DNA of 48,939 nucleotides from Escherichia phage vB_EcoS_PHB17. Positions 1,210 to 48,792 of this stretch are shown in pieces (within the stretch, counting starts at the first letter, position 1; each line of letters starts with the position of its first letter). The position numbers and the translations under genes were made by a program. Location: sequence record NC_054892.1; one strand, written 5' to 3'. The notes under the pieces are model-generated. The model did no database searches, was not told the DNA's origin, and saw nothing but the letters and a program-made list of their open reading frames with translations.

Positions 1210-1529
1210 TGCAAAAGTTCAAAGTGGTGTTAGGCGCAATCATGGTTGTTGCTGGCGTCGTCATGCTGACTGGTTGCGACGGCGACACCAGGACGCCGGA
1301 ACATGCACGCATCAAAATGCAGGTTGAAACGGGAGCAGATCACAACCGCGTTAGCGTGCGCAAGTTGACAGAGTTTGCTGACGGCCTGGCGTACAACGAC
1401 AAGCGCGGGATTTACCTTATCACCGATAAGCAAACGGGCAAGGAATACATTGGCGTTTCTGGTGTCGGTATCACCGAAACAGGATCGCACGCTTGCGGAA
1501 AGGGTTGCACACGCCAGGATGAGCGATAG
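1209..1529 (+). CDS. putative lipoprotein (106 aa)
   Basis: N-terminal hydrophobic segment ending in lipobox LTGC followed by Asp at +2 (CDGD); start overlaps previous stop. Confidence 0.6.
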   Translation: MQKFKVVLGAIMVVAGVVMLTGCDGDTRTPEHARIKMQVETGADHNRVSVRKLTEFADGLAYNDKRGIYLITDKQTGKEYIGVSGVGITETGSHACGKGCTRQDER

Positions 1530-1545
1530 CACTTTTTGTTAAAAC
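1526..1545 (+). promoter_or_regulatory. conserved motif copy ATAGCACTTTTTGTTAAAAC
   Basis: Begins on TAG stop of lipoprotein gene; followed by hairpin GGGGTT..AACCCC containing TATAGT. Confidence 0.5.
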
Positions 1546-1600
1546 TCGATCAGGGGGTTGCGATATAGTAACCCCATCGAAACGAAACGAGGATTGCAAA

Positions 1601-1759
1601 ATGGTTACTCTGATTACCTGGGAACACGAAAACAGCCAGCCGGAAGCACGCGAGTTTGAAACGGTTGCTGCTTGCTATCACCTGGCGGCGAATGGCGGTT
1701 TTTACAAGGCGCAGATTGTTAACGAATTTGGAGTTGTTGATTATGAGTTCCACGCCTGA
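1601..1759 (+). CDS. small hypothetical protein (52 aa)
   Basis: ATG 1601 with GAGGA upstream, sits downstream of motif plus hairpin module; below ORF-track size cutoff. Confidence 0.3.
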   Translation: MVTLITWEHENSQPEAREFETVAACYHLAANGGFYKAQIVNEFGVVDYEFHA

Positions 1760-2033
1760 TTTCACCAGCTATACAGCAACGGTTGATTTTGAGGGGTTGA
1801 AATTACCCCTCCCGAACGTGTGCCGATACATAACGCGCGATGAGTTCGGCTTTATCCAGGCCTGGGCGAATAGGCCAACCAAAAACACGGAGCACGGCGG
1901 CTTTGGTGATGGAGAGTTTACGCCGATCACGTTAGGACACCAGCGCGGAGACAATCCCGTTGTTATGCGCAAATATCGCCGCAGCCGTAGTAACTGCCTT
2001 ATCTCAATTTTTGGCATCATTCCGCCACGATAG
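1743..2033 (+). CDS. hypothetical protein (96 aa)
   Basis: In-frame ATG 1743 (MSSTPDF) overlapping stop of the 52-aa ORF; longer track start 1656 lacks RBS. Confidence 0.45.
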   Translation: MSSTPDFTSYTATVDFEGLKLPLPNVCRYITRDEFGFIQAWANRPTKNTEHGGFGDGEFTPITLGHQRGDNPVVMRKYRRSRSNCLISIFGIIPPR

Positions 2034-2049
2034 CACGAATTGCTAAAAC
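2030..2049 (+). promoter_or_regulatory. conserved motif copy ATAGCACGAATTGCTAAAAC
   Basis: Overlaps TAG stop; followed by hairpin CCAGG..CCTGG and CATAAT. Confidence 0.5.
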
Positions 2050-2104
2050 AGCCAGGTGAAAGCCTGGCATAATAGCCCCAACGACAACAAACGAGGAAAG
2101 CACA

Positions 2105-2350
2105 ATGAAAAACGTAACCGTAAAACTCATCAACCACGGCGGCTATGATGGATTGAAACACCTGGAATTCCCAATCGAGGTGCAAGGAAAATTGCATGAG
2201 GCCTTGGGTTACATCGATGTGCCAATGAGTGAGCTTGAGCGTATCGGGTACGACAAAGTAAAAGGCCAGATCGCAGAGGTCAAGGATTGCGCAGAGGGTA
2301 GCGACGATTTGACATTCTTCCAGGGTAGCGAGGCGGTAGTAATCGGCTAA
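2105..2350 (+). CDS. hypothetical protein (81 aa)
   Basis: ORF with GAGGAA upstream; preceded by motif and hairpin. Confidence 0.5.
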   Translation: MKNVTVKLINHGGYDGLKHLEFPIEVQGKLHEALGYIDVPMSELERIGYDKVKGQIAEVKDCAEGSDDLTFFQGSEAVVIG

Positions 2351-2370
2351 ATAGCACGAAATGTTAAAAG
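2351..2370 (+). promoter_or_regulatory. conserved motif copy ATAGCACGAAATGTTAAAAG
   Basis: Directly after TAA stop; hairpin GGGGATT..AATCCCC containing TATAAT. Confidence 0.5.
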
Positions 2371-2426
2371 GGGATTTGCTCTGAGCGGTATAATCCCCAC
2401 ATCGAAACAACACAGAGGAACACAAA

Positions 2427-2597
2427 ATGAAATCTCGCGAATATCGTAACATCAACAATTCCCTGGTCTACTGGCTGGAGAACGGCGAGGTTTTGGTTCG
2501 ACATCCAGAAACAGGAAAAGTGATCCGTTCAGGATATAGCGCGGAGACTTTCTTTGTGATGGTTGGCAACGACACGCTGGAATTGATTGAAGAATGA
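2427..2597 (+). CDS. small hypothetical protein (56 aa)
   Basis: ATG 2427 with AGAGGAA upstream after motif and hairpin; below track cutoff. Confidence 0.35.
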   Translation: MKSREYRNINNSLVYWLENGEVLVRHPETGKVIRSGYSAETFFVMVGNDTLELIEE

Positions 2598-2676
2598 GCG
2601 CATTAACTTTCTTTCATGCCGTCACCTGGGCGGCGTTGTTCACCTGGCTATTCACTCACTACTAACGGAGAGATTC

Positions 2677-3216
2677 ATGATTGAGTTTGAAATTTGGGGC
2701 AAGACCTACCGCCTACCAACGCCAAACAAAGGGGTTGTGATTGTCGATTATGATGGCACGCTTTCGGACGGTGCGCACCGCTTGCACCTGTTGCCAACAA
2801 AGGATCTGCATTTAACTGAATCCTGGAGTGAGTTTAATCGCGCGGCAATTCACGACACGCCAATCAGAGATACGATAGCCGTAATCAATGGCCTTTGGGT
2901 ATCCGGTTTCGCCGTTATCGTGCTAACAGGCCGTAGCGATGAGGTAGAGCGTGAATCTCACGAATGGCTAAACTACCACGGCGTCAAATACGATTACATG
3001 ATCATGCGCCGCGCCACTGATAACCGCAAAGACACGATCATCAAAGAGGAGGTGTTACGCGCGATAGGGCTTGAAAACATCGTGTGCGCCTTTGACGATT
3101 CGCCGTCTGTTATCCCATTTATGCGCAGCCTGGGGATCACAACATACGCGGTCACGCATTACGAGCAACCGCATTCACATTTGCAGAGTCACGGCGTGGA
3201 GGAGTTGCCAGAATGA
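2677..3216 (+). CDS. HAD-superfamily phosphatase / nucleotidase-like protein (179 aa)
   Basis: HAD motif I VIVDYDGTL, motif II VLTGR, C-terminal DDS; GGAG RBS before ATG 2677. Confidence 0.65.
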   Translation: MIEFEIWGKTYRLPTPNKGVVIVDYDGTLSDGAHRLHLLPTKDLHLTESWSEFNRAAIHDTPIRDTIAVINGLWVSGFAVIVLTGRSDEVERESHEWLNYHGVKYDYMIMRRATDNRKDTIIKEEVLRAIGLENIVCAFDDSPSVIPFMRSLGITTYAVTHYEQPHSHLQSHGVEELPE

Positions 3217-3637: not shown

Positions 3638-3657
3638 ATAGCACGAATTGCTAAAAC
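3638..3657 (+). promoter_or_regulatory. conserved motif copy ATAGCACGAATTGCTAAAAC
   Basis: Exact consensus; followed by hairpin with TATAGT. Confidence 0.5.
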
Positions 3658-3711
3658 ACGAAATCGTGGTTGCGGTATAGTAACCAAATACCAAACAACG
3701 AGGAACTAAGC

Positions 3712-3969
3712 ATGAAAACTTTAGAGCAGATTTTCACCGAAATTGAAAAGCACGGCGTTACCGCCAAAAACAAGATCTTAACCAGTGGCGCAACTCACCT
3801 GGCGCAAGATAGCGACGGCGCTGTTTACGGCTACAAGGGAAAGCCAAAGCACATGCAGGATTTTGAAGAATGGCAATCCGGCGACGGTGAAGATAGCCGC
3901 GCTGTGATTTATTGCGGCGAGTTTGCAGAGCCGGAAAACTGGAAAGTGTGTGTTTGGGAATTACCATAA
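3712..3969 (+). CDS. hypothetical protein (85 aa)
   Basis: ATG 3712 (MKTLEQ) with ACGAGGAA RBS, downstream of motif and hairpin. Confidence 0.5.
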   Translation: MKTLEQIFTEIEKHGVTAKNKILTSGATHLAQDSDGAVYGYKGKPKHMQDFEEWQSGDGEDSRAVIYCGEFAEPENWKVCVWELP

Positions 3970-4032: not shown

Positions 4033-4611
4033 ATGGCTAAAATCATCGTACTGAATGCACCGCCAGGAGCGGGAAAGGACACAATCGGAGGGCTGGTTAA
4101 AGATGAGTCGCCAGTGCCTTTGCGCCTGTTGAGCTTCAAAGAGCCAATGTTTGAAATTGCGCTCGCTATCCTGGGGCCTGGTAAGTATCGCGATTTCTTG
4201 ACGGCATACAACGACCGCGAGCAGAAAGAAAAGCCGCATGACTTCCTGAATGGTATGACTTGCCGCGAGTTCATGATCTGGATTAGTGAGGACGTGATGA
4301 AGCCGCGATTTGGTAATGGGTATTTCGGCAAGCGGTTTGCAGAGGAAGCGGAGCGCAACGACATTCCAGTTATTTGCACCGATGGCGGATTCCCTGACGA
4401 AATCATAGAGTTAATACGTGGCGGTCATGAGGTGAAAGTTTGCCGACTACATCGCCAGGGTTACACCTTTCAGGGAGATAGCCGCGATTACATCCGAATC
4501 AGTAGCGCGCGCGACAACGCCAGTGGATGCCGTGAATATGATTACACGTTGACGGATGGCAATCCAATGCAAACGGTGCGTCAAATTATCGCTGACCACC
4601 TGGCGAAATAG
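4033..4611 (+). CDS. P-loop nucleotide kinase (dNMP kinase-like, 192 aa)
   Basis: Walker A NAPPGAGKDT close to N-terminus, resembling phage deoxynucleoside monophosphate kinases; AAAGGAG RBS. Confidence 0.6.
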   Translation: MAKIIVLNAPPGAGKDTIGGLVKDESPVPLRLLSFKEPMFEIALAILGPGKYRDFLTAYNDREQKEKPHDFLNGMTCREFMIWISEDVMKPRFGNGYFGKRFAEEAERNDIPVICTDGGFPDEIIELIRGGHEVKVCRLHRQGYTFQGDSRDYIRISSARDNASGCREYDYTLTDGNPMQTVRQIIADHLAK

Positions 4612-4627
4612 CACGAATTGCTAAAAG
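4608..4627 (+). promoter_or_regulatory. conserved motif copy ATAGCACGAATTGCTAAAAG
   Basis: Overlaps TAG stop of kinase gene; TATAAT at 4646-4651. Confidence 0.5.
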
Positions 4628-4681
4628 CGTGGCGAAAGGCTCCGCTATAATGCACACATACCAACAAAAGAGGAACACAAG

Positions 4682-5083
4682 ATGAAGAAAGAAATCCTGA
4701 AGTTAGGCAAAGGCTCCGTCATGCGCTGCATTAATTCAGATCTGAATTGCTTTAAGGTTGGCGAGAACTACATCACCGGAAAGCGACTGTTTATCGGAAA
4801 TCGCCATATCGGGATCGGTCGATTCATAGTGAACCACCACAAAAACGGCTATTTCGGCATTGAGGATTTGAGCGGCGTTATCGCGCGTTTCGTACTGGTC
4901 AAGGATAGCAAAGGCCGTTATGCGAAACACGACACTAAGCCTAACCCACACAAAGACCGTCGAAACGGCAAGCGCGATGCTCGACGCTTCCGCCGCTACG
5001 CTCGCCAGATGTTGAAGTGTGACAAACCAGGCACTTTGGAGTATAAAGTTATCTCAAATTTGGCGCGTAACGTAGGGAAATGA
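4682..5083 (+). CDS. hypothetical protein (133 aa)
   Basis: ORF with AAGAGGAA RBS after motif and hairpin. Confidence 0.5.
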   Translation: MKKEILKLGKGSVMRCINSDLNCFKVGENYITGKRLFIGNRHIGIGRFIVNHHKNGYFGIEDLSGVIARFVLVKDSKGRYAKHDTKPNPHKDRRNGKRDARRFRRYARQMLKCDKPGTLEYKVISNLARNVGK

Positions 5084-5425: not shown

Positions 5426-5607
5426 TGTGGAACTGGAAAAAGCTGTTACTGACCGTTTTTCTTGCCCTGCTTGGTTCAACGCTGATTGAAGGTTTTACTA
5501 ACTTCCTGGGTGCGTTGGTTATGGCAATCGCCTATTCGATCCCGTCCTACTATGACGGCAAGAAAGCCGGAGGCCGTGAAGTGTTCGAGCTAATCAAGCG
5601 CAAATAG
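5425..5607 (+). CDS. small membrane protein (60 aa)
   Basis: ATG 5425 overlapping previous stop; two hydrophobic helices; stop TAG is part of motif copy. Confidence 0.45.
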   Translation: MWNWKKLLLTVFLALLGSTLIEGFTNFLGALVMAIAYSIPSYYDGKKAGGREVFELIKRK

Positions 5608-5623
5608 CACGAATTGCTAAAAC
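5604..5623 (+). promoter_or_regulatory. conserved motif copy ATAGCACGAATTGCTAAAAC
   Basis: Overlaps TAG stop; hairpin AGGAGCA..TGCTCCT containing TTATAG. Confidence 0.5.
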
Positions 5624-5688
5624 TAAATCAGGAGCATTTGTTATAGTGCTCCTCGTTGAGTTAAGCAACCAATCAAGGAGAAAAGGAA

Positions 5689-5970
5689 ATGGCAAGCATC
5701 CGTAAACACCTGGTCAACGCATTTGAGAATTTCGCAATCAGCATGGGCTGGGAGGATAGCGCAAAGCATAAACGCGGTATTCGTCATTGTGGCTATAAGA
5801 ATTCCCGCCAGTGGGCACGAATGATGGCTGAGATTTACGAGGAGCCGTTAAGCGTTGGCGGCTGGAATAGCGCAATCATCGAAATGATCGAGGAGGCGGC
5901 GCGTACCGATACCCCGCTAACGCAACACGACTACGACGCATTTGTAGAGGAGGAAATTTCATGCTGGTAA
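5689..5970 (+). CDS. hypothetical protein (93 aa)
   Basis: ORF with AAGGAG RBS after motif and hairpin. Confidence 0.5.
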   Translation: MASIRKHLVNAFENFAISMGWEDSAKHKRGIRHCGYKNSRQWARMMAEIYEEPLSVGGWNSAIIEMIEEAARTDTPLTQHDYDAFVEEEISCW

Positions 5971-6176: not shown

Positions 6177-6913
6177 AATACGTAAAACCTACCACTAACG
6201 GCGTTGATTTCACGGCTGGCAAACTTTACGAAGTGATCAAAGAGATTTCAGGCGCTCGCGTTATCGTTAAAAACGACGAAGGGGAGGAGGTTATTGTAAG
6301 GATTGACGGAAAAGAATCAGTGCGCCTTAATTGGCCTGGAAAGTTCAACCTGGTTGAATTCCCCACTATTTCGGAAGCCGTTAAACATGTAACGGCGTCA
6401 GTGTTGAGAACTGAGTGCAATCCGGGCGGAACCATCTATAACGCAGTGAGAGAAAGTGATCACTTAAAGGCGGCTCGCCAAATCGCTGATAACGCGGCAA
6501 AGCTGGCGGCTCAAGTTGCATACCCGAAAAACGGTTATTTCCTCAATAGCAAAGGCCAGTTGGAGCAGTGGCAGAATGGGGAGCTTGTTGTGACAATCGG
6601 CAACGTTGATTCTACGGCGGCAAAAGGTGAGGGTTGGCGCGTTCACAATGCAGGTATGCAAATCACTAGCGGAAACTTTAAACCGAGAGAGCTAACCGTT
6701 GTCCTGAATGGTAAGCAGTACACCGAAAGCCAGATCGCAAAGCTGGAAAAGGAAGCGGAACAACACAAGGCTGATTGCATCAAGGCGGAGGCTGTTATTG
6801 ATCAGCTTTATGACATGTTTCCGCAAGTGCGAAATGCAGAGCAACTAATTGCAGCCGTCAAGAGTGCGAAAATCTTCTCTGATGCGTTTCTTGAACTGCA
6901 AAAAGTCAAATAG
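6173..6913 (+). CDS. hypothetical protein (246 aa)
   Basis: ATG 6173 overlapping previous stop; long ORF ending in TAG of motif copy. Confidence 0.55.
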   Translation: MKYVKPTTNGVDFTAGKLYEVIKEISGARVIVKNDEGEEVIVRIDGKESVRLNWPGKFNLVEFPTISEAVKHVTASVLRTECNPGGTIYNAVRESDHLKAARQIADNAAKLAAQVAYPKNGYFLNSKGQLEQWQNGELVVTIGNVDSTAAKGEGWRVHNAGMQITSGNFKPRELTVVLNGKQYTESQIAKLEKEAEQHKADCIKAEAVIDQLYDMFPQVRNAEQLIAAVKSAKIFSDAFLELQKVK

Positions 6914-6929
6914 CACGAATTGCTAAAAC
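6910..6929 (+). promoter_or_regulatory. conserved motif copy ATAGCACGAATTGCTAAAAC
   Basis: Overlaps TAG stop; hairpin GAGGACA..TGTCCTC. Confidence 0.5.
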
Positions 6930-6989
6930 TTCCGCGAGGACATTTGTTAAAGTGTCCTCATTGAAGCGAAGCACACAAAGGAGCTTAAA

Positions 6990-7202
6990 ATGAAAATTCG
7001 AATCACCAAAGTTGACATTGACCGCAACGACGGAAGTATTACCCTGGAGCAATGCGGGTTTAAAGTTGGTGACATTGTGGAGGTTGACGGATTCTTTCGC
7101 GATGGTTCTTACTGCGTGTTAGCAATCCGCAACACAGAAGAAATCCGAATCGGTGATAACATCGGCGTAAACCATGACGAATGCGAGGTAGTAGAAGAAT
7201 GA
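6990..7202 (+). CDS. hypothetical protein (70 aa)
   Basis: ORF with AAAGGAG RBS. Confidence 0.5.
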   Translation: MKIRITKVDIDRNDGSITLEQCGFKVGDIVEVDGFFRDGSYCVLAIRNTEEIRIGDNIGVNHDECEVVEE

Positions 7203-9489: not shown

Positions 9490-11058
9490 ATGCTTATTTG
9501 GGAAGATTTGACAGCGGCGCAGAAACGCGCCATTAAAGAAATGAGCGAGCTTTCATTTGAAAAGATGATCCGCATATGGTTTCAACTCCTGCAAGGCCAG
9601 AAGTTTTTAAGCAACTGGCATTTCAGCTACCTATGCAGTGAGGTAGAGAAAATCATTTCCGGCGAATCGCAAAACGTGATCTTTAACATCACGCCAGGTT
9701 CGGGTAAAACGGAAATCTTTTCGATCCATATGTCGCCGTATGCGTCAATCAAAAGCAAAAAGGTGCGCAACCTTAATCTTTCGTTTAGTGATGGCCTGGT
9801 GCAACAGAACAGCAACAGGATCAAGGAGATTGTTGGATCTCCAGAGTGGCAAGAGTTATGGCCTGGCAAGCTGGCGAAAGCCAGCGCCAAAGATCTGATT
9901 GTGCAGGACGAAAACGGGAAAGTTAAGTTGCAGGTGAATTCCCGTTCAATTGGTGGACAGGTTACGGGCTTGCGTGGCGGCTATATGGATGATGGTTTTA
10001 CGGGGATGTTGGTACTTGACGATCCAGACAAACCAGATGATATGTTTTCGAAGGTGCGCCGTGAAGCAATGCAAATGCGCCTAAAAAACACCGTGCGATC
10101 ACGTCGAATGAAAGACACAACGCCAATCGTAATGGTTCAGCAGCGGCTACACGTCAATGATTCTACTTACTTCATGACAAGCGGCGGCATGGGCGGCATT
10201 CAGTTTAAAGTTGTGAGCATTCCGGCGCTAGTTACGAAAGAATACCGCGAAACGCTTCCTGAGTGGTTAATTCCTGAATTTGATCGTGATGTGCTGACAA
10301 GCGAGCCTGTTTATATTGACGGCGTGGCGCATTACTCTTTTTGGCCTGCAAAGGAGAGCGCAAAAGACCTTTTAGCGCTACGCGAGGCCGACCCATACAC
10401 TTTTGCATCACAGTATCAGCAGCATCCTATAGCGTTAGGCGGCAACGTGTTTAAAGTGGATTGGTTCCAGTATTACGGCGACGGCGAGAAATGCACGCTA
10501 CCAAAACCGGAACGCTTTGAGTACACATTTATTACGGCGGATACAGCGCAAAAAGTAGGCGAGCTAAACGACTACACTGTTTTCTGTTATTGGGGCATGT
10601 ACAAAAACCGCGTTTACTTCATTGATGGCGTGCGCGGCAAATGGGAAGCGCCAGACCTTGAAACAAACTTTGTGGCTTTCGTTAATCAGTGCTGGAAGCG
10701 CAACAAAGAATGCGGCTCCTTGCGTAGAATCCACGTCGAGGATAAAGCGAGCGGAACGGGCTTGATTCAGGGGGCAAAGAAAAAGATCCCTATTGATATA
10801 AATCCCGTTCAGCGCAACACGGACAAAGTAACACGCGCGATGGATGCAGCACCAGTTATGAGGGCGGGGCGCGTTGCATTGCCTGAAAACCATCCAATGC
10901 TTGCGGAGCTACTCGCAGAGGTGGCTGCGTTCACGTTCGATGATTCTCATCCAAACGACGATATCGTTGATAACATCGTTGATGCGGTCAACGTGGAAAT
11001 GAACCTCGCAGACGATCCGGTTGCACGCATGAAAAAACTGGCTGGATTGAAGAAATAG
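9490..11058 (+). CDS. terminase large subunit (522 aa)
   Basis: ATPase P-loop TPGSGKTE in N-terminal half, acidic nuclease-type C-terminal half; first of packaging/head genes. Confidence 0.85.
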   Translation: MLIWEDLTAAQKRAIKEMSELSFEKMIRIWFQLLQGQKFLSNWHFSYLCSEVEKIISGESQNVIFNITPGSGKTEIFSIHMSPYASIKSKKVRNLNLSFSDGLVQQNSNRIKEIVGSPEWQELWPGKLAKASAKDLIVQDENGKVKLQVNSRSIGGQVTGLRGGYMDDGFTGMLVLDDPDKPDDMFSKVRREAMQMRLKNTVRSRRMKDTTPIVMVQQRLHVNDSTYFMTSGGMGGIQFKVVSIPALVTKEYRETLPEWLIPEFDRDVLTSEPVYIDGVAHYSFWPAKESAKDLLALREADPYTFASQYQQHPIALGGNVFKVDWFQYYGDGEKCTLPKPERFEYTFITADTAQKVGELNDYTVFCYWGMYKNRVYFIDGVRGKWEAPDLETNFVAFVNQCWKRNKECGSLRRIHVEDKASGTGLIQGAKKKIPIDINPVQRNTDKVTRAMDAAPVMRAGRVALPENHPMLAELLAEVAAFTFDDSHPNDDIVDNIVDAVNVEMNLADDPVARMKKLAGLKK

Positions 11059-11076
11059 CACTAATTGCTAAAAAAC
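11055..11076 (+). promoter_or_regulatory. conserved motif copy ATAGCACTAATTGCTAAAAAAC
   Basis: Overlaps TAG stop of terminase large subunit; followed by TGATATAAT and terminator hairpin. Confidence 0.5.
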
Positions 11077-11085
11077 TGATATAAT

Positions 11086-11113
11086 CAGGGCTGGACTTTT
11101 CCAGCCCTTTTTA
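11086..11113 (+). terminator. rho-independent terminator-like hairpin
   Basis: AGGGCTGG-ACTTTT-CCAGCCCT then TTTTT, between terminase and portal genes. Confidence 0.6.
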
Positions 11114-11129
11114 TTATGGAGATCAGGTT

Positions 11130-12410
11130 ATGACTGAAAAAAACAAACTTGTTAAGGCCGATGGCTACAATGAAACATTCGGTTGCGGGAAACGCGTTGA
11201 GCAACCTTTCTACATGCAAGGTATTGCAAAAACCACGCTTGCGACTTTTTACGAGCAAGACGGGTTAGCAAAGAAAATCGTTGATGTGATCCCGGAAGAT
11301 ATGGTTACGCCAGGGTTTAGGGTTGAGGGGATCGCAGATGAGGCAGCTTTCCGTTCCCTATGGGATGAGAAGCGACTCAACGCAAAAATCATCGACGCTC
11401 TTTGCTGGTCACGTTTGTTCGGCGGCGCTGCAATCGTTGCGGTTGTGCAAGATGGGCGCATGTTGAAATCACCAGTTAAGGAGGGAGCCGTTTTAGAGGA
11501 TATTCGTGTTTATGATCGCTATCAGGTTCGAGTAGAAAAGCGTGAGACAAACGCGCGGAGCGTGCGTTATGGGGAGCCTGTTTTGTACACGATTTCACCA
11601 GGGAACGACATTCCAGAATATCAGGTGCATTACACGCGAATTTGCATCATTGATGGTGAGCGTCTACCTAACGAGCAGCGAAAAAACAATGATGGTTGGG
11701 GCGGTTCAGTCCTCAACAAGCGACTGATTGAAGCCATTCACGATTACAACTATTGTGAAGAACTGGCGAGCCAGCTTTTACGACGCAAACAGCAAGCAGT
11801 GTGGAAAGCGCGAGGCCTGGCGGATTTATGCGACGACGACGAAGGGGTTGCAGCAGCGCGGTTGCGTTTGGCGCAGGTTGACGACGAAAGCGGCGTAGGA
11901 AAGGCAATTGGTATTGACGCCAATGATGAGGAATACGAGGTTCTAAACTCTGATGTTGCGGGTGTTCCTGAATTCCTGCAAAGCAAGTTTGATCGCATCG
12001 TCGCCTTAACTGGTATTCATGAGATCGTACTGAAAAACAAGAATACTGGCGGCGTAAGCGCAAGCCAAAACACCGCGCTTGAAACTTATCACAAACTTAT
12101 TGATCGCAAACGTGGAGAGGACTACAAACCAGTTTTAGAATTCATCCTCCCTTTCCTGGTGAGTGAATCAGAATGGTCTATCACGTTCGAGCCGCTTTCC
12201 GTTCCGAGCGACAAGGATCAGGCGGAAGTATTAAACAAAAACGTTGATTCTGTCACTAAGCTGGTGCAGGATCAGCTAATCGACACGGAAGAAGCGCGCG
12301 ACACGTTGCGCTCTATGGGTTCGATTATCAAGATCAAAGACACTGATAACATCAAGCTACCGAAACCGGAAGAAACGGAACCGGAGCCAGGAACGGAGAA
12401 TAATCAATGA
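11130..12410 (+). CDS. portal protein (426 aa)
   Basis: Size and position directly after terminase large subunit; acidic C-terminus. Confidence 0.75.
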   Translation: MTEKNKLVKADGYNETFGCGKRVEQPFYMQGIAKTTLATFYEQDGLAKKIVDVIPEDMVTPGFRVEGIADEAAFRSLWDEKRLNAKIIDALCWSRLFGGAAIVAVVQDGRMLKSPVKEGAVLEDIRVYDRYQVRVEKRETNARSVRYGEPVLYTISPGNDIPEYQVHYTRICIIDGERLPNEQRKNNDGWGGSVLNKRLIEAIHDYNYCEELASQLLRRKQQAVWKARGLADLCDDDEGVAAARLRLAQVDDESGVGKAIGIDANDEEYEVLNSDVAGVPEFLQSKFDRIVALTGIHEIVLKNKNTGGVSASQNTALETYHKLIDRKRGEDYKPVLEFILPFLVSESEWSITFEPLSVPSDKDQAEVLNKNVDSVTKLVQDQLIDTEEARDTLRSMGSIIKIKDTDNIKLPKPEETEPEPGTENNQ

Positions 12411-15336: not shown

Positions 15337-15354
15337 CACAAAAACCTGTTGCAC

Positions 15355-15373
15355 GTTTAACAAAAAGTGCTAT
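15355..15373 (-). promoter_or_regulatory. conserved motif copy, reverse orientation
   Basis: TTAACAAAAAGTGCTAT on plus strand between paralog 2 and major capsid genes. Confidence 0.4.
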
Positions 15374-19024: not shown

Positions 19025-19050
19025 AAAAGGGGCATTGCGCCCCTTTTTTT
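19025..19050 (+). terminator. rho-independent terminator
   Basis: GGGGC-ATTGC-GCCCC flanked by A4 and T7, after major tail protein gene. Confidence 0.85.
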
Positions 19051-19089
19051 ATTGCTGTAGAATCATCCTACCAAAACAAACCAAATCGC

Positions 19090-19108
19090 TTTTAACAAAA
19101 AGTGCTAT
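19090..19108 (-). promoter_or_regulatory. conserved motif copy, reverse orientation
   Basis: TTTTAACAAAAAGTGCTAT on plus strand between major tail terminator and chaperone gene. Confidence 0.4.
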
Positions 19109-31517: not shown

Positions 31518-31536
31518 ACAGCACAAATAGCTAAAC
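31518..31536 (+). promoter_or_regulatory. conserved motif variant ACAGCACAAATAGCTAAAC
   Basis: Directly after TAA stop of exonuclease; hairpin ACGGGG..CCCCGT containing TGATATAAT. Confidence 0.45.
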
Positions 31537-31591
31537 AAATGAAATACGGGGTGATATAATTCATCCCGTAAGTTAACCAGAGGAATCTAAT

Positions 31592-35950: not shown

Positions 35951-35959
35951 AATTCACCC

Positions 35960-36000
35960 ATAAAAAAATCGCGTAGCCGGATGATACCAGATACGCGATC
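35960..36000 (-). terminator. terminator-like hairpin (minus strand)
   Basis: ATCGCGTA..TACGCGAT stem with long loop and T7 on minus strand after HTH gene. Confidence 0.4.
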
Positions 36001-36006
36001 AGTGTT

Positions 36007-36450
36007 TTAGCTATTTGTGCTGTTTTCAAAGTCGGACGCACGAACAACGCGGAGCATTTCGCGCTTTTCACACTTGAGTGTAAGCGGTTTTCCGTTGCTA
36101 TCAAATTTCAGATCTGGGCGGCAGAATGAAGCGCGATAACCCTTGCAGCCTTGCCGCTTGTAATCTTGATGCACCTTTTGAGCGCCTTGCGCTGAAATCA
36201 TTCCGCGTTTCTTCCATTGCTGGATCGTCTGAAACGACACTTTAAGGCGGCGTGCCATTTCTGATTGAGTGCCATAATATTCTAACAGGATGTCAAGCCG
36301 CGCACGCAATCCGGCCTTTACTTCATCTTTCAGCACGTAGTAACCTGTTTTGCGGCGGCGTGGCTTTTTGTCTTTTCCGCGTCGAGTTCCGTTATTACCA
36401 TTGATTGTGCGTTTATCTACTTCACCAGTTGAAACAGCGATTCTTTTCAT
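36007..36450 (-). CDS. helix-turn-helix DNA-binding protein (147 aa)
   Basis: HTH segment QSEMARRLKVSFQTIQQWKKRG; basic N-terminal region; start at MKRIAVS. Confidence 0.6.
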   Translation of the reverse strand: MKRIAVSTGEVDKRTINGNNGTRRGKDKKPRRRKTGYYVLKDEVKAGLRARLDILLEYYGTQSEMARRLKVSFQTIQQWKKRGMISAQGAQKVHQDYKRQGCKGYRASFCRPDLKFDSNGKPLTLKCEKREMLRVVRASDFENSTNS

Positions 36451-36463: not shown

Positions 36464-36483
36464 ATAGCACTTTTTGTTAAAAT
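36464..36483 (+). promoter_or_regulatory. conserved motif copy ATAGCACTTTTTGTTAAAAT
   Basis: In divergent region between HTH gene and helicase; TGTAGTATAGC downstream. Confidence 0.5.
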
Positions 36484-36539
36484 CACTTATGTTTAGGCTT
36501 GTAGTATAGCGTCAAACGAAACAACGTTAAAGGTTTAAA

Positions 36540-38542: not shown

Positions 38543-38962
38543 ATGGTTACTGACAAGGGCGATTATCTGGAGTATTACGAGCGCGATCCGAGCGACACGC
38601 GAAAGGAAGATTCTCACCAGGTTGATTGTGTGGCGTGGTTGCGCCACTTTTATCCCTGGCTTTTATTCTGGCATACAGTAAACGAGGGGCAAAAGACGAT
38701 CACCAGCGCATTGAGGGATGAGCAAGCAGGATTGAGAAAGGGCGTTAGTGATTTCGTTATCCTGATTGGTATTAACAGCCGTTACCCATTCGCGGCTATT
38801 GAACTAAAGCGCGTAAACAAGTCTGGTAAAGGCAAGGCGTCACCAGTCAGCGACGAACAAAAGGGATTTTTACGCGATGTTCGCCAGCGTGGAGGATTCG
38901 CGGCGGTGGCTTACGGATTCGAGCAATTCAAATTAGCGATTGCAGATCTTTTGCATAAATAG
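38543..38962 (+). CDS. VRR-NUC domain nuclease (139 aa)
   Basis: DFVIL ... ELK PD-(D/E)xK-type motif; GGGAG RBS. Confidence 0.6.
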   Translation: MVTDKGDYLEYYERDPSDTRKEDSHQVDCVAWLRHFYPWLLFWHTVNEGQKTITSALRDEQAGLRKGVSDFVILIGINSRYPFAAIELKRVNKSGKGKASPVSDEQKGFLRDVRQRGGFAAVAYGFEQFKLAIADLLHK

Positions 38963-38978
38963 CACGAATTGCTAAAAC
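38959..38978 (+). promoter_or_regulatory. conserved motif copy ATAGCACGAATTGCTAAAAC
   Basis: Overlaps TAG stop of VRR-NUC gene; hairpin GGCGCA..TGCGCC then CATAAT. Confidence 0.5.
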
Positions 38979-39148
38979 AGGCGCAACGGAATGCGCCATA
39001 ATGCACACATCGAAACAAACAAGGAATTAATCATGAAATACATTTTTAATATGGCGGCAAGCGTTGTATTGGGAGCGGCGGTTACTGCTTTCTTTTTGTG
39101 GGTTATCTCCCTGGCTGGCAACTTTAACGGATTTTGAGGATCAGAAAA

Positions 39149-40125: not shown

Positions 40126-40145
40126 ATAGCACTAATTGCTAAAAC
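40126..40145 (+). promoter_or_regulatory. conserved motif copy ATAGCACTAATTGCTAAAAC
   Basis: Directly after TAA stop; hairpin CCCGC..GCGGG. Confidence 0.5.
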
Positions 40146-40200
40146 CCGCTCCGGCGGGTTTGTTATTATGCACTCATCGAAACGAAACAAGGAAAACAGA

Positions 40201-40377
40201 ATGATTATTTACAGCAAATCAGCATTTGACGCCGCGCAATCAATCGCACGCGATGCGGTCGAGGGAAAATCTGAAAATGGTTTTGAATTTGATTGGTCTG
40301 CTGCAATGGTTATGCTTCGCGTTGCATACGGTCATTATCCTTTAGATTTCGCGGAGAAATATTATCGTGAAGGTTGA
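40201..40377 (+). CDS. hypothetical protein (58 aa)
   Basis: ATG 40201 with AAGGAA RBS after motif and hairpin. Confidence 0.4.
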   Translation: MIIYSKSAFDAAQSIARDAVEGKSENGFEFDWSAAMVMLRVAYGHYPLDFAEKYYREG

Positions 40378-40615
40378 AACAGGACGCCAGGCAGTTTGGC
40401 AACACGCAAAGGAATGCGGGTTAGATGAGAAAATAGCACTAATTGCTAAATACTTCGACATCAAGGATGTTAGTATTATTGGCAACGGCAAGATGTCATA
40501 TATTGACGAAAGGCCGCGAAAGGTTCACAGGGTTCCCGCCGTTCCATCAATCCAGTTTTTCAGGGATGAAAAGGCAAAGGCGGAGGCCGCAAAGAAAGCA
40601 CAAAAAAGAAGGTAG
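40367..40615 (+). CDS. hypothetical basic protein (82 aa, GTG start)
   Basis: ORF with alternative start; a motif copy is translated in frame as IALIAKY. Confidence 0.3.
   Translation: MKVETGRQAVWQHAKECGLDEKIALIAKYFDIKDVSIIGNGKMSYIDERPRKVHRVPAVPSIQFFRDEKAKAEAAKKAQKRR
40433..40452 (+). promoter_or_regulatory. conserved motif copy inside a predicted ORF
   Basis: ATAGCACTAATTGCTAAATAC lies within ORF 40367-40615. Confidence 0.4.
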
Positions 40616-43756: not shown

Positions 43757-45337
43757 TCACCCCAGCAATGATGGATTCACAAACACGCGCCCATTGATAA
43801 CGCAAACATAATTTCGTTCTTCCAGCATTGGGAGTAAGTTTTCCTCAATGCGTTTCATGATTCCGGCTTGCCCCAGGAACGGCTTAACCTTGCGTGCGCT
43901 TTCGTAAATTGCGCGAACCGTTAAGATCCCTTTGTTTGCTTTACCGTGGCGAGTGATGATATCAATCAGCTTTGACATTTCCGCATCGTCACCAGCGTGA
44001 CCGGAGGCATTCGCCGCGCTAATGTAAGTTTTGCTCAATTCCTGGAACATGATCAAAGCCTCTTGCATCGTTTCAACTTCAATTTCACGCGCCTTTTGTG
44101 GTGAACCGTTCTCATTGAACCAGTTACGGATTACATGCAGAACGGATGCAATGCGGATCACTTGCTTATCCATTTTACCCAGCGCACCGCGTAGCATCGT
44201 GTGTGAGTATTTTCCGCCGTCTGCTAAATCCGGCTCCATTTCCTGACGTGCGCGATTTAGGCAACGCATAGCCGCTTTGCTGATCTTCAATGAAACATCC
44301 ATTTCCGACATGATGTTATGAACAAGTTGGTAATATTGCGCTTTCAGTGTCGGATCAACAGGTTCAAACGTTGAATCACCTTCATCATCAATAAAGGTTC
44401 GACGGCCTAAAAATGATTCCTCGCGAACAAGTAAGAAACGCTCACTAACACCTATACCGCGTGAACCAGCCTCCATGATACCATTTATTGTTTCATCCTG
44501 AGCGATCACACTCATGCAACCAAGCGCCTTAAAACTCATGTTGTTTTCAGCGTTTGCACGCGCGATAGAAACGTGTCCAGCATCCCAGGCTTTAAGAACC
44601 AACTCACTGTTAGTTTTTCGCTCGCTGTTGGCGTAGGTCAAACCCAAAAGGCTGTTAATACTCGTTGCCTCATCCGAGATTACCGCAAAGTTTCCTTGAC
44701 GGTTGTTAATCTTTGCCAAACCTTCTGGCGTGGTATCAGACACCGGAAACACAACGTCGCACAGCTTTTGCAACTTCTCCTCTAACTCCTCTTTTTCTTC
44801 GTAAAGAGCGGCCATATCAGAACCGGATCGCTCGCTTTTCATTTCTTTAGCAAGGCCAGCCAGTTTAGCCAGAATCTTTTTGCGCTCTTTCTTGCGTTGT
44901 TCGTTGATTCGCTCAACTTCGCAAACCATCGGAGCAATCGCCAGACTATTGATCGCAGATTTACCAGTTGACGGCGGCTGGCTCGTTACAACGTAAAGCG
45001 CGGTTGGCTGGTCGGTTCCATGATAATCAACAGTAAAGCGTCCGAGCATTGCAGCAGAAATGCAGCCTACAAAGTGCATATAGGCAGACGAAACAGGGAA
45101 TTGCACAGAGTTTGCAATGTTGCGTGACAGCTTGCCAACAACATCAACGTCATTCCCCAAAGAGATCACAGGGTAGCGGTCATTGCCTGAGTTAACATCT
45201 TGAACATCGCTCCAGAAACTTGATGATTGGCGGTAGCCGTTTGCGTTGATTGCCACACGCAGAGGTGAAACGCCCAGGCTTTCAGCGGTATCAATAATGT
45301 CTTTCGGTGATAAGCGTTTTTGTTCAAAATCGTACAT
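43757..45337 (-). CDS. P-loop NTPase of unknown function (527 aa)
   Basis: Walker A QPPSTGKS and Walker B AVISDEAT; start MYDFEQ with AAAGGAG RBS. Confidence 0.6.
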   Translation of the reverse strand: MYDFEQKRLSPKDIIDTAESLGVSPLRVAINANGYRQSSSFWSDVQDVNSGNDRYPVISLGNDVDVVGKLSRNIANSVQFPVSSAYMHFVGCISAAMLGRFTVDYHGTDQPTALYVVTSQPPSTGKSAINSLAIAPMVCEVERINEQRKKERKKILAKLAGLAKEMKSERSGSDMAALYEEKEELEEKLQKLCDVVFPVSDTTPEGLAKINNRQGNFAVISDEATSINSLLGLTYANSERKTNSELVLKAWDAGHVSIARANAENNMSFKALGCMSVIAQDETINGIMEAGSRGIGVSERFLLVREESFLGRRTFIDDEGDSTFEPVDPTLKAQYYQLVHNIMSEMDVSLKISKAAMRCLNRARQEMEPDLADGGKYSHTMLRGALGKMDKQVIRIASVLHVIRNWFNENGSPQKAREIEVETMQEALIMFQELSKTYISAANASGHAGDDAEMSKLIDIITRHGKANKGILTVRAIYESARKVKPFLGQAGIMKRIEENLLPMLEERNYVCVINGRVFVNPSLLG

Positions 45338-45391
45338 CTGAAATTCTCCTTTCTTGTTGCCGCTAAGTATAACGGCAACAATACTACCCTG

Positions 45392-45410
45392 TTTTAACAA
45401 AAAGTGCTAT
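45392..45410 (-). promoter_or_regulatory. conserved motif copy, minus strand
   Basis: Overlaps TAG stop of 45407-45652; hairpin GTTGCCG..CGGCAAC with TATACT, then AAAGGAG and ATG 45337. Confidence 0.5.
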
Positions 45411-47150: not shown

Positions 47151-47164
47151 AACCGTTCAGACCA

Positions 47165-47386
47165 TCAAGCCCATTTCAAAATCAGGAAAGCCAGATCATC
47201 AACCATCGCGTAAACGTCGCTTTCGGTAAACAGGCGAATACGACCGCCAGGATGCTCGCCAACCGCATAACCAGATTTTACCTTGCTGATTGTCAGTTGG
47301 TGGAAGCCGGAAGCGCGATCCATTTTCAGAACTACTTTCCCGTTGCTCTTGACGATGTTCATGATGGATTCGGTTTTCAGTTTCAT
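47165..47386 (-). CDS. hypothetical protein (73 aa)
   Basis: ORF downstream of motif, hairpin and extended -10. Confidence 0.45.
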   Translation of the reverse strand: MKLKTESIMNIVKSNGKVVLKMDRASGFHQLTISKVKSGYAVGEHPGGRIRLFTESDVYAMVDDLAFLILKWA

Positions 47387-47442
47387 TGCTTTGTTCCTTC
47401 GTTAGTTGGTATGCGCCCATTATACAAGGAGCGAAAAACTTG

Positions 47443-47461
47443 TTTTAGCAAAAAGTGCTAT
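47443..47461 (-). promoter_or_regulatory. conserved motif copy, minus strand
   Basis: Followed on minus strand by TGTATAATG about 22 nt after TTGCTA, then RBS and ATG 47386. Confidence 0.55.
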
Positions 47462-47559
47462 TTAATTGAAATATGAATGACGATTTGCGCGTTTGCCGTC
47501 ACCGCCGTAATGATCATTTGAAACGGCAATCATCCAGGCGTTAGAAAAAATAATCAGTC

Positions 47560-47715
47560 TCATAATTTTACCCCGATAAACGTATAGTGAATAAGATCGC
47601 ACGCTCTAATCTTTGTTGACTTGCGCCATGTTGCTTTATCATTGAACCAGCGCAAAGCGTTTAAGCCTTGGGCGCGGTAAATTGCGACCGTTTCAACATT
47701 GATGTAGTGAATCAT
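47560..47715 (-). CDS. small hypothetical protein (51 aa)
   Basis: ATGA overlap with stop of upstream gene; weak RBS. Confidence 0.25.
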   Translation of the reverse strand: MIHYINVETVAIYRAQGLNALRWFNDKATWRKSTKIRACDLIHYTFIGVKL

Positions 47716-47948
47716 TTCGGTAACTTGATTTCGTTGTACTCGAAAAACTCGATCACATAGGGGCATTCTTTCGGCGCTTCCTGGCCTAACATCACCTCGC
47801 AACGCCCGTTGAACAGGTTGCAGGTTGAGCACAACCAGCCTCCGCATTGCTCCGCTACAATGTGATATCCGTTACACTTGCCGCCGCCGAACCGATGAGG
47901 GAAATCATAGGACGGACAAGTGCAAGTGACCTGAAAGCGCCGCGCCAT
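47712..47948 (-). CDS. Cys-rich small protein, possible zinc binding (78 aa)
   Basis: CTC ... CNGYH ... C ... C pattern; GGAGG RBS. Confidence 0.45.
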   Translation of the reverse strand: MARRFQVTCTCPSYDFPHRFGGGKCNGYHIVAEQCGGWLCSTCNLFNGRCEVMLGQEAPKECPYVIEFFEYNEIKLPK

Positions 47949-48161
47949 TTAATCAACCTCCTTAAAATGGAATTCATCAATGCCAGCGCCACGAATAACG
48001 CCAGGATACCGGAACAGCCAAAGCGATTGCCCGTTATCATCAAACACATGCGGATCGTTAGACCAGCGACCATGCAGTTTATATTCCTTCCCTTCCGTAA
48101 AGTTCCAGACGTTTACAAAAGAGCTTACCGCTTTAGTGCAAACCAGTTTTTGAGCTTTCAT
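47949..48161 (-). CDS. hypothetical protein (70 aa)
   Basis: ORF with GGAGA RBS. Confidence 0.45.
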   Translation of the reverse strand: MKAQKLVCTKAVSSFVNVWNFTEGKEYKLHGRWSNDPHVFDDNGQSLWLFRYPGVIRGAGIDEFHFKEVD

Positions 48162-48370
48162 TAGATGATCTCCATTACAGTTTTTGAGTCACCAGCCAGG
48201 CAGAAGTAAAACTCATTGACGCGTGCAACGTTCCAGGTAAGGCCGGAGTGATAGCAAACCATATCCTCAAGGTCGATTGTGATTTCAGTACCTTTCTTGA
48301 AAATACCTTTCGTGAGTTCGCTGTTACGGCTGATAACTTTAACGTCGATTTGAGTTTCCATTTGCTTCAT
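48161..48370 (-). CDS. hypothetical protein (69 aa)
   Basis: Start MKQMETQ downstream of motif and hairpin. Confidence 0.4.
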   Translation of the reverse strand: MKQMETQIDVKVISRNSELTKGIFKKGTEITIDLEDMVCYHSGLTWNVARVNEFYFCLAGDSKTVMEII

Positions 48371-48420
48371 CTCTCTGATTGGTTTCGATGGGGTTATTAT
48401 GCCAACTAACCCCGATCCTG

Positions 48421-48439
48421 TTTTAACAAAAAGTGCTGT
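48421..48439 (-). promoter_or_regulatory. conserved motif variant (ACAGCAC), minus strand
   Basis: Directly after TAA stop of 48441-48716; hairpin GGGGTTAG..AACCCC with CATAAT. Confidence 0.5.
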
Positions 48440-48440
48440 T

Positions 48441-48716
48441 TTACTTTTTAATTTCGCTGGCGATGAATGCAATCACTTCGCGTAAGTGTTTCTCATCCTT
48501 GATTGTCGCTGGCAACTCCTCTTTGATTTCGTCTGCCAGGTAGATATTGCCGTGCCAGGTGAAAAAGCCGTCATTGTTGATCAGGTATGAGCACATCCAT
48601 TCGCAATCATTATCCGCTTCCCAAATGCAAAGCTGATCACCGTTACCGAAATCATCAACGCTTAACTCAATTCCACGTTTGCCAGCAAAATTAGTTGTCG
48701 TCTTAGATACCATCAT
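48441..48716 (-). CDS. hypothetical protein (91 aa)
   Basis: Start MMVSK with GAGGAAAA RBS; first gene of the minus-strand early operon. Confidence 0.45.
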   Translation of the reverse strand: MMVSKTTTNFAGKRGIELSVDDFGNGDQLCIWEADNDCEWMCSYLINNDGFFTWHGNIYLADEIKEELPATIKDEKHLREVIAFIASEIKK

Positions 48717-48773
48717 TTCCGTTTTCCTCAATTCTTTTCGATGAAGTAACTATACCAAATCCGATCCGATCCG

Positions 48774-48792
48774 TTTTAGCAAAAAGTGCTAT
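48774..48792 (-). promoter_or_regulatory. conserved motif copy, minus strand
   Basis: Upstream of first gene of minus early operon (ATG 48716). Confidence 0.5.

Follow-up and report, generated by a model that had tools for sequence, protein, structure and literature searches.

The 48,939-nucleotide (nt) sequence of Escherichia phage vB_EcoS_PHB17 (NC_054892.1) was analyzed as a single stretch, which is termed the window throughout. At 48.9 kb, the window comprises the complete genome of a T1-like siphovirus (Drexlerviridae), in which a 20-bp motif recurs, its copies sharing the orientation of the genes that they precede. We propose that this 20-mer is probably a class II marbox in forward orientation, which would place the genes that follow it under the MarA/SoxS/Rob mechanism of the bacterial host. 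The first 20 kb of the window share ∼75–85% nucleotide identity with Drexlerviridae in GenBank, and its gene order is collinear with that of phages T1 and TLS.

The feature is real, and the existence of the repeat is already published. A 2024 study of TLS described the same element as a "21-nt direct repeat" (aaATAGCACnnnTTGnTAAAA), found also in T1, Rtp and Rogue1; its 18 intergenic copies in TLS are oriented with transcription, lie ∼76 nt 5′ of start codons and form three groups by their central triplet (AAA, TTT or GAA) (PMC11447400). The authors suggested that the repeats are stoperators, enhancer sites or UP elements, and listed their function among the open questions (PMC11447400). The fixed −10 element, the extended −10, the covariation of the hairpin and the marbox identity that we report here are not part of that account. 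We searched the literature for a link of marboxes, Rob, MarA or SoxS to T1-like phages and found none; nor did the literature that could be searched describe what the repeat most likely is, a set of ∼20 class II marbox promoters joined to terminator hairpins. A search of the literature for start-site or RNA-seq data on Drexlerviridae was likewise negative.

The original prediction, made from the sequence alone, had described the element as at least 21 copies of a motif with an N5 spacer. Taken literally that pattern yields 0 matches, and the true spacer is N3 or N4 (ATAGCAC-N3-TTGYTAAAAC, equivalent to ATAGCAC-N4-TGCTAAAAC). With ≤3 mismatches allowed, the corrected motif gave 22 matches in the window, when 0.42 were expected and when 0 of 100 shuffled sequences reached that number. 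The predicted count was borne out, since 19 strict and two degenerate copies (31518+ and 36023−) make up 21 cassettes; matches at 15414+ and 25033+ look like chance. The proposed link to stop codons also held: the TAG of the motif (positions 2–4) is the stop codon of an upstream open reading frame (ORF, ≥30 codons) in 8 of the 19 copies and that of a 25-codon ORF at the copy at 3638, and a TAA lies immediately 5′ of the motif in four further copies (2351, 40126, 47461 and 48439).

MarA, SoxS and Rob each bind, as a monomer, an asymmetric site termed the marbox, which has the consensus gcannwwntgnnaaa (PMC12052159) or, in an alternative form, 5′-GCAHWWWWTGYYAAA-3′ (PMC6900184). The first of these, scanned as the marbox core GCANNWWNTGNNAAA, had 19 exact matches in the window vs. 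1.31 expected, and all 19 are motif copies. The consensus GCAHWWWWTGYYAAA had 12 perfect and 10 one-mismatch matches vs. 2.46 expected. An alignment of 44 cassettes (window, T1 and TLS) was anchored on the motif. Thirteen positions were near-invariant, and variation was found only at positions 8–10 (TTT, GAA and TAA/AAA classes), 14 (C/T) and 20, and occasionally at 2, 7 and 19. The flanks and the spacer vary freely, so that conservation is sharply limited to the 20-bp block. Within it the phage copies vary only where the marbox consensus is degenerate, and as it permits (W at 9–10, Y at 14, and H at 7, where they have C or T).

The likeness extends to individual host sites. The mar marbox of E. 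coli MG1655 (ATGCCACGTTTTGCTAAATC) is identical to the phage sequence ATAGCACTTTTTGCTAAAAC at 16 of 20 positions, and the micF marbox of the same strain (ACAGCACTGAATGTCAAAAC) has the GCAC, the 7-bp gap to AAA and the AAAAC end, all as in the phage motif. At micF the marbox is followed, after exactly 18 nt, by the −10 element TAGAAT, which equals the phage distance; the register of the phage motif relative to the −10 is thus identical to that of micF. Promoters of class II have their marbox in forward orientation, overlapping the −35 region (PMC6900184; PMC12052159; PMC9638938). Structures of Rob, SoxS and RamA on micF, obtained by cryo-electron microscopy, locate this site near −41 to −41.5 (PMC9178005; PMC8811837; PMC9638938); in them the A site GCAC and the B site (C)AAA overlap the −35, and the activator contacts σ70 region 4 and the C-terminal domain of the RNA polymerase α subunit (α-CTD). 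The phage motif has an A site GCAC and a B site YAAA 7 bp apart, and in every case it faces the −10 and the gene, overlapping the −35 region of the predicted start. Rob occludes σ region 4 from the −35 and contacts G−47 and A−45 in micF (PMC9178005); with a start at motif position 51 the phage G4 would be −47 and A6 would be −45, a numbering that may shift by 1 nt with the start site.

A TATAAT-like −10 lies exactly 18 nt past the motif end in 44 of 55 matches from the window, T1 and TLS. A larger set of 396 further distinct cassettes, recovered from IMG/VR, gave the best −10 at exactly 18 nt in 320 (81%). In the window the spacing is 18 nt in 14 copies and 17 or 19 nt in four. The hexamer occupies cassette positions 39–44, with invariant A as its second and T as its sixth base (A−11 and T−7), and is accompanied by G−14 or by a complete extended −10 (TGn): a G stands at position 37 (G−14) in 86% of the 44 aligned and 87% of the 396 IMG/VR cassettes, and T−15 (position 36) is found in 59% of the aligned set (45–59% over both sets). 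The predicted start, ∼7 nt past the −10, is position 51, an A in 86% of the aligned set (A+1 88% in IMG/VR) that is preceded by C−1 in 79% of the IMG/VR cassettes (C−1/A+1, 79–88% over both sets); such a CA is usual at start sites. The 20-mer would then occupy about −50 to −31, and the −35 position at 17-bp spacing reads AAAACn, as in micF. This is a σ70 −10 with a poor or absent −35, as at class II marbox promoters. Downstream of the predicted start come a ∼25-nt CA-rich leader (AUCGAAACNAAAC) and a GAGGA-type ribosome-binding site (RBS); the start codon of window copies is 73–85 nt past the motif start.

Much of this anatomy had been anticipated. The original prediction placed a TATAAT-like hexamer roughly 22 nt past TTGCTA, and most copies have it there (22 nt past TTGYTA, 18 nt past the motif end); it added an RBS and ATG, which were found, and it was right to see in the motif a promoter-associated element. 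It also argued rightly that a 22-nt spacing excludes TTGCTA as a σ70 −35. This spacing is explained because TTGCTA is the middle of the marbox rather than a −35 hexamer. Of the functions it offered, an activator site is a good reading. A phage-specific promoter class is at odds with a motif that fits a host marbox in sequence, orientation and register ahead of an ordinary σ70 −10 with G−14 or an extended −10, and an RNA processing signal is at odds with a motif upstream of the predicted start. A functional role for the small inverted repeat TAGCA/TGCTA, which it pointed out, is not supported, for the conserved element is asymmetric, like a marbox bound by a monomer.

Direct recognition of the motif by RNA polymerase, as a UP-like element, a displaced −35 or a σ54-type look-alike, or a role as an RNA signal for processing or antitermination, is very improbable. 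TTGCTA does resemble a −35, but a spacer of 22 bp is beyond the σ70 range, and no other −35 was found at 16–18 bp. A cruciform that shortens the spacer was rejected, because the hairpins occur in differing registers and many straddle the −10. The consensus of σ54 promoters is TGGCAC-N5-TTGCW, with GG at −24, GC at −12 and invariant spacing; in the motif (TAGCAC-N3-TTGCT) AG stands in place of GG and 2 bp are missing, and a σ70 −10 follows at a fixed distance. Sites for σ32, σ28 and σE, or for CRP, FNR, Fis and IHF, were excluded on spacing or sequence against the known consensus. UP elements are A/T-rich tracts of degenerate sequence that α-CTD binds at −59 to −38. The A-rich flanks are like UP subsites, and UP or enhancer elements were suggested by the TLS authors (PMC11447400), but the motif is no A/T tract: its G and C residues (GCAC, TTGC) are invariant, and −59 to −52 is not conserved. 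As for an RNA signal, the 5-bp dyad of the motif could fold on read-through RNA, and the C/T at position 14 keeps a G·U pair; against this, the motif would be absent from RNAs begun at the predicted start downstream of it, and an Rfam scan of the window gave no matches.

The copies in the window are as follows (TG denotes an extended −10).

Cassette 1, 1526..1603 (+): marbox 1526–1545 (ATAGCACTTTTTGTTAAAAC), its TAG the stop of ORF 1209–1529; a hairpin spans the −10 TATAGT (1564–1569); predicted start ∼1576 (A); ATG at 1601, DUF7170 gene.
Cassette 2, 2030..2107 (+): marbox 2030–2049, GAA class, its TAG the upstream stop; GNRA-type spacer hairpin CCAGG-tgaaag-CCTGG; TG and −10 CATAAT (2068–2073); predicted start ∼2080; ATG at 2105.
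Cassette 3, 2351..2429 (+): marbox 2351–2370, abutting TAA; a hairpin spans the −10 TATAAT (2389–2394); ATG at 2427.
Cassette 4, 3638..3714 (+): marbox 3638–3657; −10 TATAGT (3676–3681); ATG at 3712.
Cassette 5, 4608..4684 (+): marbox 4608–4627, its TAG the stop of the ORF ending at 4611; −10 TATAAT (4646–4651); ATG at 4682.
Cassette 6, 5604..5691 (+): marbox 5604–5623, its TAG a stop; type-A hairpin GGAGCA/TGCTCC; TG and TATAGT (5642–5647); ATG at 5689.
Cassette 7, 6910..6992 (+): marbox 6910–6929, its TAG the stop of the ORF ending at 6913; type-A hairpin GGACA/TGTCC; TG and TAAAGT (6948–6953); ATG at 6990.
Atypical copy, 11055..11132 (+): marbox 11055–11074, its TAG the stop of terL (large terminase); TATAAT 5 nt downstream and no −10 at the class II distance; strong intrinsic terminator at 11087–11108; portal ATG at 11130; T1 and TLS have no copy there.
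Antisense copy, 15354..15373 (−): between two + strand late genes, immediately upstream of the gene for the major head protein; lacks a −10 at 17–19 nt; T1 counterpart at 15086−.
Antisense copy, 19030..19108 (−): marbox 19089–19108, between the major tail gene and the late gene that comes after it; TG and −10 TAGGAT (19065–19070); runs into the tail-gene terminator hairpin; T1 counterpart at 18850−.
Cassette, 29953..30031 (−): marbox 30012–30031; TG and −10 TATAGT (29989–29994) at 17-nt spacing; ATG at 29955, 103-codon gene.
Degenerate cassette after recE, 31518..31594 (+): ACAGCACAAATAGCTAAACA at 31518–31537; a hairpin flanks the −10; TG and TATAAT (31555–31560); ATG at 31592, Erf-like gene.
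Degenerate cassette in the 3′ end of a helix-turn-helix (HTH) regulator gene, 35948..36023 (−): ACAGCACAAATAGCTAAAAC at 36004–36023; TG and −10 TATCAT (35981–35986) within the loop of a terminator hairpin that has a T-run; ATG of the primase at 35950; counterparts at T1 35995− and TLS 35240−.
Helicase cassette, 36464..36542 (+): marbox 36464–36483, in the leader of the divergent HTH gene; −10 TAGTAT (36502–36507); ATG at 36540.
Cassette, 38959..39035 (+): marbox 38959–38978, its TAG the stop of ORF 38543–38962; spacer hairpin GGCGCA/TGCGCC; −10 CATAAT (38997–39002); predicted start 39009; ATG at 39033.
Cassette, 40126..40203 (+): marbox 40126–40145, TAA class, abutting a TAA stop; spacer hairpin; TG and −10 TATTAT (40164–40169); ATG at 40201.
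Marbox copy, 40433..40476 (+): 40433–40452, ending in AAATA; TG and TAGTAT (40471–40476); no clear gene start at the usual 75 nt; T1 counterpart at 40308+.
Cassette, 45335..45410 (−): marbox 45391–45410, its TAG the stop of ORF 45407–45652; a 12-bp hairpin spans the −10 TATACT (45366–45371), at 19-nt spacing; helicase ATG at 45337.
Cassette, 47384..47461 (−): marbox 47442–47461, abutting TAA; −10 TATAAT (47419–47424) at 17-nt spacing; ATG at 47386.
Cassette, 48359..48439 (−): marbox 48420–48439 (ACAGCAC...); a hairpin spans the −10; TG and CATAAT (48396–48401); ATG at 48361.
Rightmost cassette, the first of the leftward early units, 48714..48792 (−): marbox 48773–48792; TG and TATAGT (48749–48754); predicted start 48742; ATG at 48716, 91-amino acid (aa) protein.

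An ordinary strong σ70 promoter, TTGACA-17-CATAAT with an A-tract (430–458, 11 of 12 matches), lies ahead of the first three genes (491–1529; DUF7174, an 81-aa ORF and a 106-aa ORF), which are candidate immediate-early genes. This promoter (region 421–490) is the only clearly canonical one seen in 1–12 kb, and T1 and TLS likewise have two to three genes before the first motif copy. The late operon (8.9–28.6 kb) has no sense-oriented functional motif copy. The antisense copies 15373− and 19108−, of which only the latter has the promoter geometry, may exert antisense or interference control of late genes.

The original prediction had placed a hairpin next to the motif. A stable hairpin (z < −2 vs. 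shuffled sequences) was detected in 10 of the 19 window copies (mean z −2.07), so that the association stands, but it is not universal. Two arrangements were observed: the GC-rich hairpin lies inside the 18-bp spacer, often with a GAAA-type loop, or its arms flank the −10 (type A). Ten type-A cassettes from four genomes aligned without gaps, with 70 of 70 cells paired; five of the seven pairs are changed on both sides, and one pair appears as A:U, C:G, G:C, G·U and U·G. The covariation score was 0.616 vs. 0.197 in shuffled alignments, was reached by 0 of 500 of them, and slid controls gave 37–49% pairing. The G·U and U·G pairs indicate a structure of the sense-strand RNA. Because its 5′ arm is upstream of the predicted start, the hairpin would form only on read-through RNA from the upstream gene. 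In the GenBank record of T1 the hairpins right after motif copies are annotated as rho-independent terminators. The hairpin is probably a terminator, attenuator or 3′-stabilizer that overlaps the next promoter.

We then considered which protein reads the motif. Six-frame translations of the window, T1, TLS and the podovirus IME_EC2 (Murrayvirus, P22-like) were searched with MarA, and no homologue was found. BLAST matches to the cassette come essentially only from phages that infect Escherichia, Klebsiella, Shigella, Salmonella, Citrobacter, Enterobacter and Cronobacter, hosts that are established to encode the regulators (PMC12052159). The activator is available in the host, and the four phages searched gave no homologue of it. 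In IME_EC2, an unrelated phage, six cassettes combine the motif with the 18-nt distance to the −10 (motif copies at 59+, 4758−, 7068−, 28267−, 36230− and 37538−); the hairpins there are in the leader, downstream of the −10. The proteins common to IME_EC2 and the window are only a helicase, primase, RecE, Erf, a nuclease, methylases and a 91-aa protein, and at E ≤ 1 it showed no homologue either of the HTH regulator or of the immediate-early proteins. Over all motif-bearing genomes examined the common proteins are only the helicase, primase, RecE, Erf, a nuclease and Dam. The T4-like phages Lw1 (a Pseudotevenvirus, with two marbox-type cassettes) and YI837 carry the cassette beside genes that have no Drexlerviridae homologues, which argues against transfer of genes together with the cassettes. 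This distribution points to a host rather than a phage factor. Rob is constitutively expressed at a high level (PMC9178005) and would for that reason be the likeliest default partner.

Binding of the motif by a sequence-specific protein of the phage, which would activate the promoters or shut them off and would make the marbox likeness a matter of convergence or mimicry, is unlikely. One form of it is a dimeric HTH protein on the TAGCA-N5-TGCTA dyad (5 bp, 10 bp centre-to-centre, centred near −42), the candidate being the Cro/YdaS-like regulator at 36007–36450 (−) (phrog_2856, ST23 in T1; sub-threshold Pfam matches to Cro, YdaS and NinH). Its gene is kept in four of four Drexlerviridae tested and diverges from the helicase cassette, the marbox of which lies within its 5′ leader, an arrangement typical of autoregulation. 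A phage factor could also be made first, as the first three genes have an ordinary σ70 promoter, and it would suit a motif that is closer to invariance than host marboxes are. However, the element is asymmetric (C7 vs. T11, and AAAAC on one side only), and IME_EC2 keeps six cassettes without the regulator or the immediate-early proteins, which weakens the ST23-like protein as the binder. DUF7174 and its neighbors are not conserved, DUF7174 being missing even from T1, and the 91-aa protein (48441–48716), although common to IME_EC2, is absent from T1, TLS and mtp23. The T4-like phages carry the cassette among early genes and lack these proteins, and the short list of proteins common to all motif-bearing genomes speaks against such a binder as well. 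A phage protein would, moreover, leave the exact marbox sequence and the micF register as an unexplained coincidence.

Several points weigh against the identification of the 20-mer as a marbox. The motif is far more conserved than the notoriously degenerate host marboxes, with ∼13 positions invariant across genera; such strictness could reflect a more stringent binder or homogenization by recombination. At the B site it has TAAA where micF and the soxbox have CAAA, the classical 20-bp consensus (AYnGCACnnWnnRYYAAAYn) has Y at position 19 where the phage has A, and in the GAA-class copies a G takes the place of the first W. Uninduced laboratory K-12 supports good growth of T1-like phages, and we know of no report of rob, marA or soxS mutants that resist them; G−14 or the extended −10 may give enough activity without an activator. 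Three copies (11055+, 15373− and 40433+) lie outside the promoter geometry. Finally, activation by these factors is usually modest, with ∼2-fold for RamA at micF (PMC8811837), and Rob was reported to be largely sequestered without inducers (PMC9178005).

Set beside the class II promoters of the host (micF, and also fumC, inaA, lpxC P2, lpxL P1 and rfaY P1), the phage cassettes show the same asymmetric 20-bp marbox with GCAC and YAAA 7 bp apart, in the same forward position at about −41 over a non-consensus −35 and ahead of a σ70 −10, at the same 18-bp distance in micF. They differ from them in lying in a virulent phage genome rather than on the host chromosome, in their ∼20 near-identical, near-consensus copies where the host sites are degenerate, and in the G−14 or extended −10, the overlapping terminator-type hairpin and the TAAA B site. 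The E. coli rob promoter itself may be compared with the motif: two overlapping strings in the S2 table of PMC12052159 join to AATAGCATTTTTTGCTGTTTTAGC, the first 16 bases of which are almost equal to the phage motif (ATAGCAyTTTTTGCT).

The overall build of the cassette recalls the promoter-early stem-loop elements of T4-type phages (PeSLs), in which an early promoter and a GC-rich stem-loop are repeated between small variable genes. In RB49 and phi1 the order is stop codon, promoter, a stem-loop between or over the promoter elements, Shine-Dalgarno sequence and ATG, and reporters revealed both promoter and terminator activities (PMC2839356). The phage cassettes have this composite architecture. 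The RB49 and phi1 elements, however, contain a near-perfect TTGACA-N17-TATAAT with an AT-rich upstream region (PMC4122927), of which other T4-like phages have variants, whereas here, in a siphovirus family, no −35 is found at 17 bp and a marbox takes its place. By its promoter the cassette is therefore not a PeSL, though it works like one. PeSL-like patches of homology, which would shuffle small accessory genes by recombination through a 20-mer that has no specific partner, are quite unlikely as the explanation of the motif. They would account for the shared architecture (PMC2839356), for the finding that the cassette-flanked genes are the least conserved among T1, TLS, mtp23 and A16a, for cassettes that adjoin unrelated genes in T4-like and P22-like phages, and for the longer similarity shared within subfamilies such as the type-A cassettes. 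But conservation is confined to a 20-bp block that is invariant across genera while flanks and spacer are free, and recombination alone leaves the fixed 18-bp distance to the −10, and variation only at marbox-degenerate positions, unexplained. Recombination fits better as a secondary consequence of the cassettes than as an alternative to a marbox.

The T4-like copies (Lw1 21968−, 22340− and 17809−; another T4-like sequence at ∼1134 and ∼1508) are of three kinds. One cassette has the exact T1-type geometry, in a second the motif is 11 nt further upstream of a normal TTGCCT-17-TATATT promoter, and in a third an ATAGCAC half precedes a consensus TTGACA promoter. Pieces of cassettes thus seem to have been exchanged between PeSLs and T1-type cassettes.

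The middle promoters of T4 have a MotA box (TGCTT, ∼12 bp from the −10 and centred at −30) that is read by the phage protein MotA with AsiA. There too, in a virulent phage, an activator box replaces the −35 at a fixed distance from a σ70 −10; here the box is 18 bp from the −10 and matches the site of a host factor. Mot-box stem-loop elements (PmSLs) are mentioned in PMC4122927. The stoperators of mycobacteriophage L5, an analogy drawn in PMC11447400, are likewise many short asymmetric sites oriented with transcription. They are sites for the phage repressor inside transcribed regions, at no set distance from a −10, whereas the motif is strictly phased at 18 bp to the −10 in 81% of the 396 IMG/VR cassettes and no repressor was recognized; a stoperator of the L5 type was rejected on that phasing.

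In the mechanism that we propose, the binding of Rob, MarA or SoxS and the activation are predicted, as are the start site and the terminator function. Each cassette (∼75 nt) would read, in order, stop codon, marbox, hairpin, −10, leader, RBS and ATG. Host MarA, SoxS or Rob (RamA in Klebsiella, Salmonella and Enterobacter) would bind the marbox as a monomer at −50 to −31 and contact σ70 region 4 and the α-CTD, in place of the absent −35 contact. The σ70 RNA polymerase would read the −10 located 18 bp downstream, aided by G−14 or a TGn extended −10, and start transcription at the conserved CA ∼7 nt past it. About 17 such promoters would serve the small, variable early genes toward either end of the genome (rightward at 1.5–8.9 kb, leftward from 48.8 to 43.4 kb) and replication and recombination genes, namely erf, primase, helicase, the dam region and the second helicase. 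On read-through RNA the hairpin would terminate, attenuate or stabilize the 3′ end, so that a cassette would close one unit and open the next.

It is possible, and we advance it tentatively, that T1-like phages, and by cassette transfer some unrelated ones, have wired their whole early and middle program to host MarA, SoxS, Rob or RamA. If so, (i) ∼20 super-consensus marboxes would tie phage expression to the regulators of efflux (AcrAB-TolC), porins and antibiotic tolerance, with phage development tuned to bile, fatty-acid, salicylate and oxidative cues and enhanced in mar, ram or sox constitutive multidrug-resistant mutants; and (ii) replicating phage DNA could titrate the regulators away from the host regulon, and an immediate-early product of the 491–1529 operon might release Rob from sequestration or stabilize MarA or SoxS. 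If the marbox reading is true, the large and therapeutically used Drexlerviridae, including the Klebsiella weberviruses, would couple early transcription to multidrug-resistance regulators, which bears on phage–antibiotic interactions, on phage performance in the bile-rich gut and on compact, host-tunable promoter–terminator parts. That would make a clear example of reliance on a host transcription activator by a virulent phage, and would extend the PeSL idea of mobile promoter–terminator cassettes from T4-type myoviruses to siphoviruses and podoviruses. The marbox reading would answer, in a directly testable form, the question posed as open in PMC11447400.

Some further observations concern the transcripts and their surroundings. 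The predicted 5′ leader is itself conserved in most copies (AUCGAAAC-G/A-AAAC at cassette positions 51–66, e.g., 1576–1592 and 39009–39025), CA-rich and unstructured, and was seen in copies from the window, T1, TLS, mtp23 and T4-like phages; it may be a translation enhancer or a stability element. The antisense cassette 19108− would yield a short (∼40-nt) RNA that ends at the tail-gene terminator. Within 36484–36545 the helicase −10 TAGTAT (+) overlaps a −10-like TATACT (−) with TTTAAC 17 bp upstream, which would serve the divergent HTH gene; the same back-to-back arrangement of −10 elements is present in T1 (TATTATA) and TLS (TATGATAT). For the 66-aa product of the 48439− cassette (48161–48361, −), Pfam gave a match at E 3e-37 to PF25180, "Phage antiviral trigger protein Gp54". 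At 8899–8918, between the early small genes and the terminase and late operon, stands a perfect hairpin (AACCCCGCGTTTGCGGGGTT) that has T-runs on both strands and is a bidirectional terminator. Positions 121–300, close to the left end and ahead of the first promoter, are very AT-rich, with TATA-type repeats and short inverted repeats, and may be related to the genome end, a pac site or an origin.

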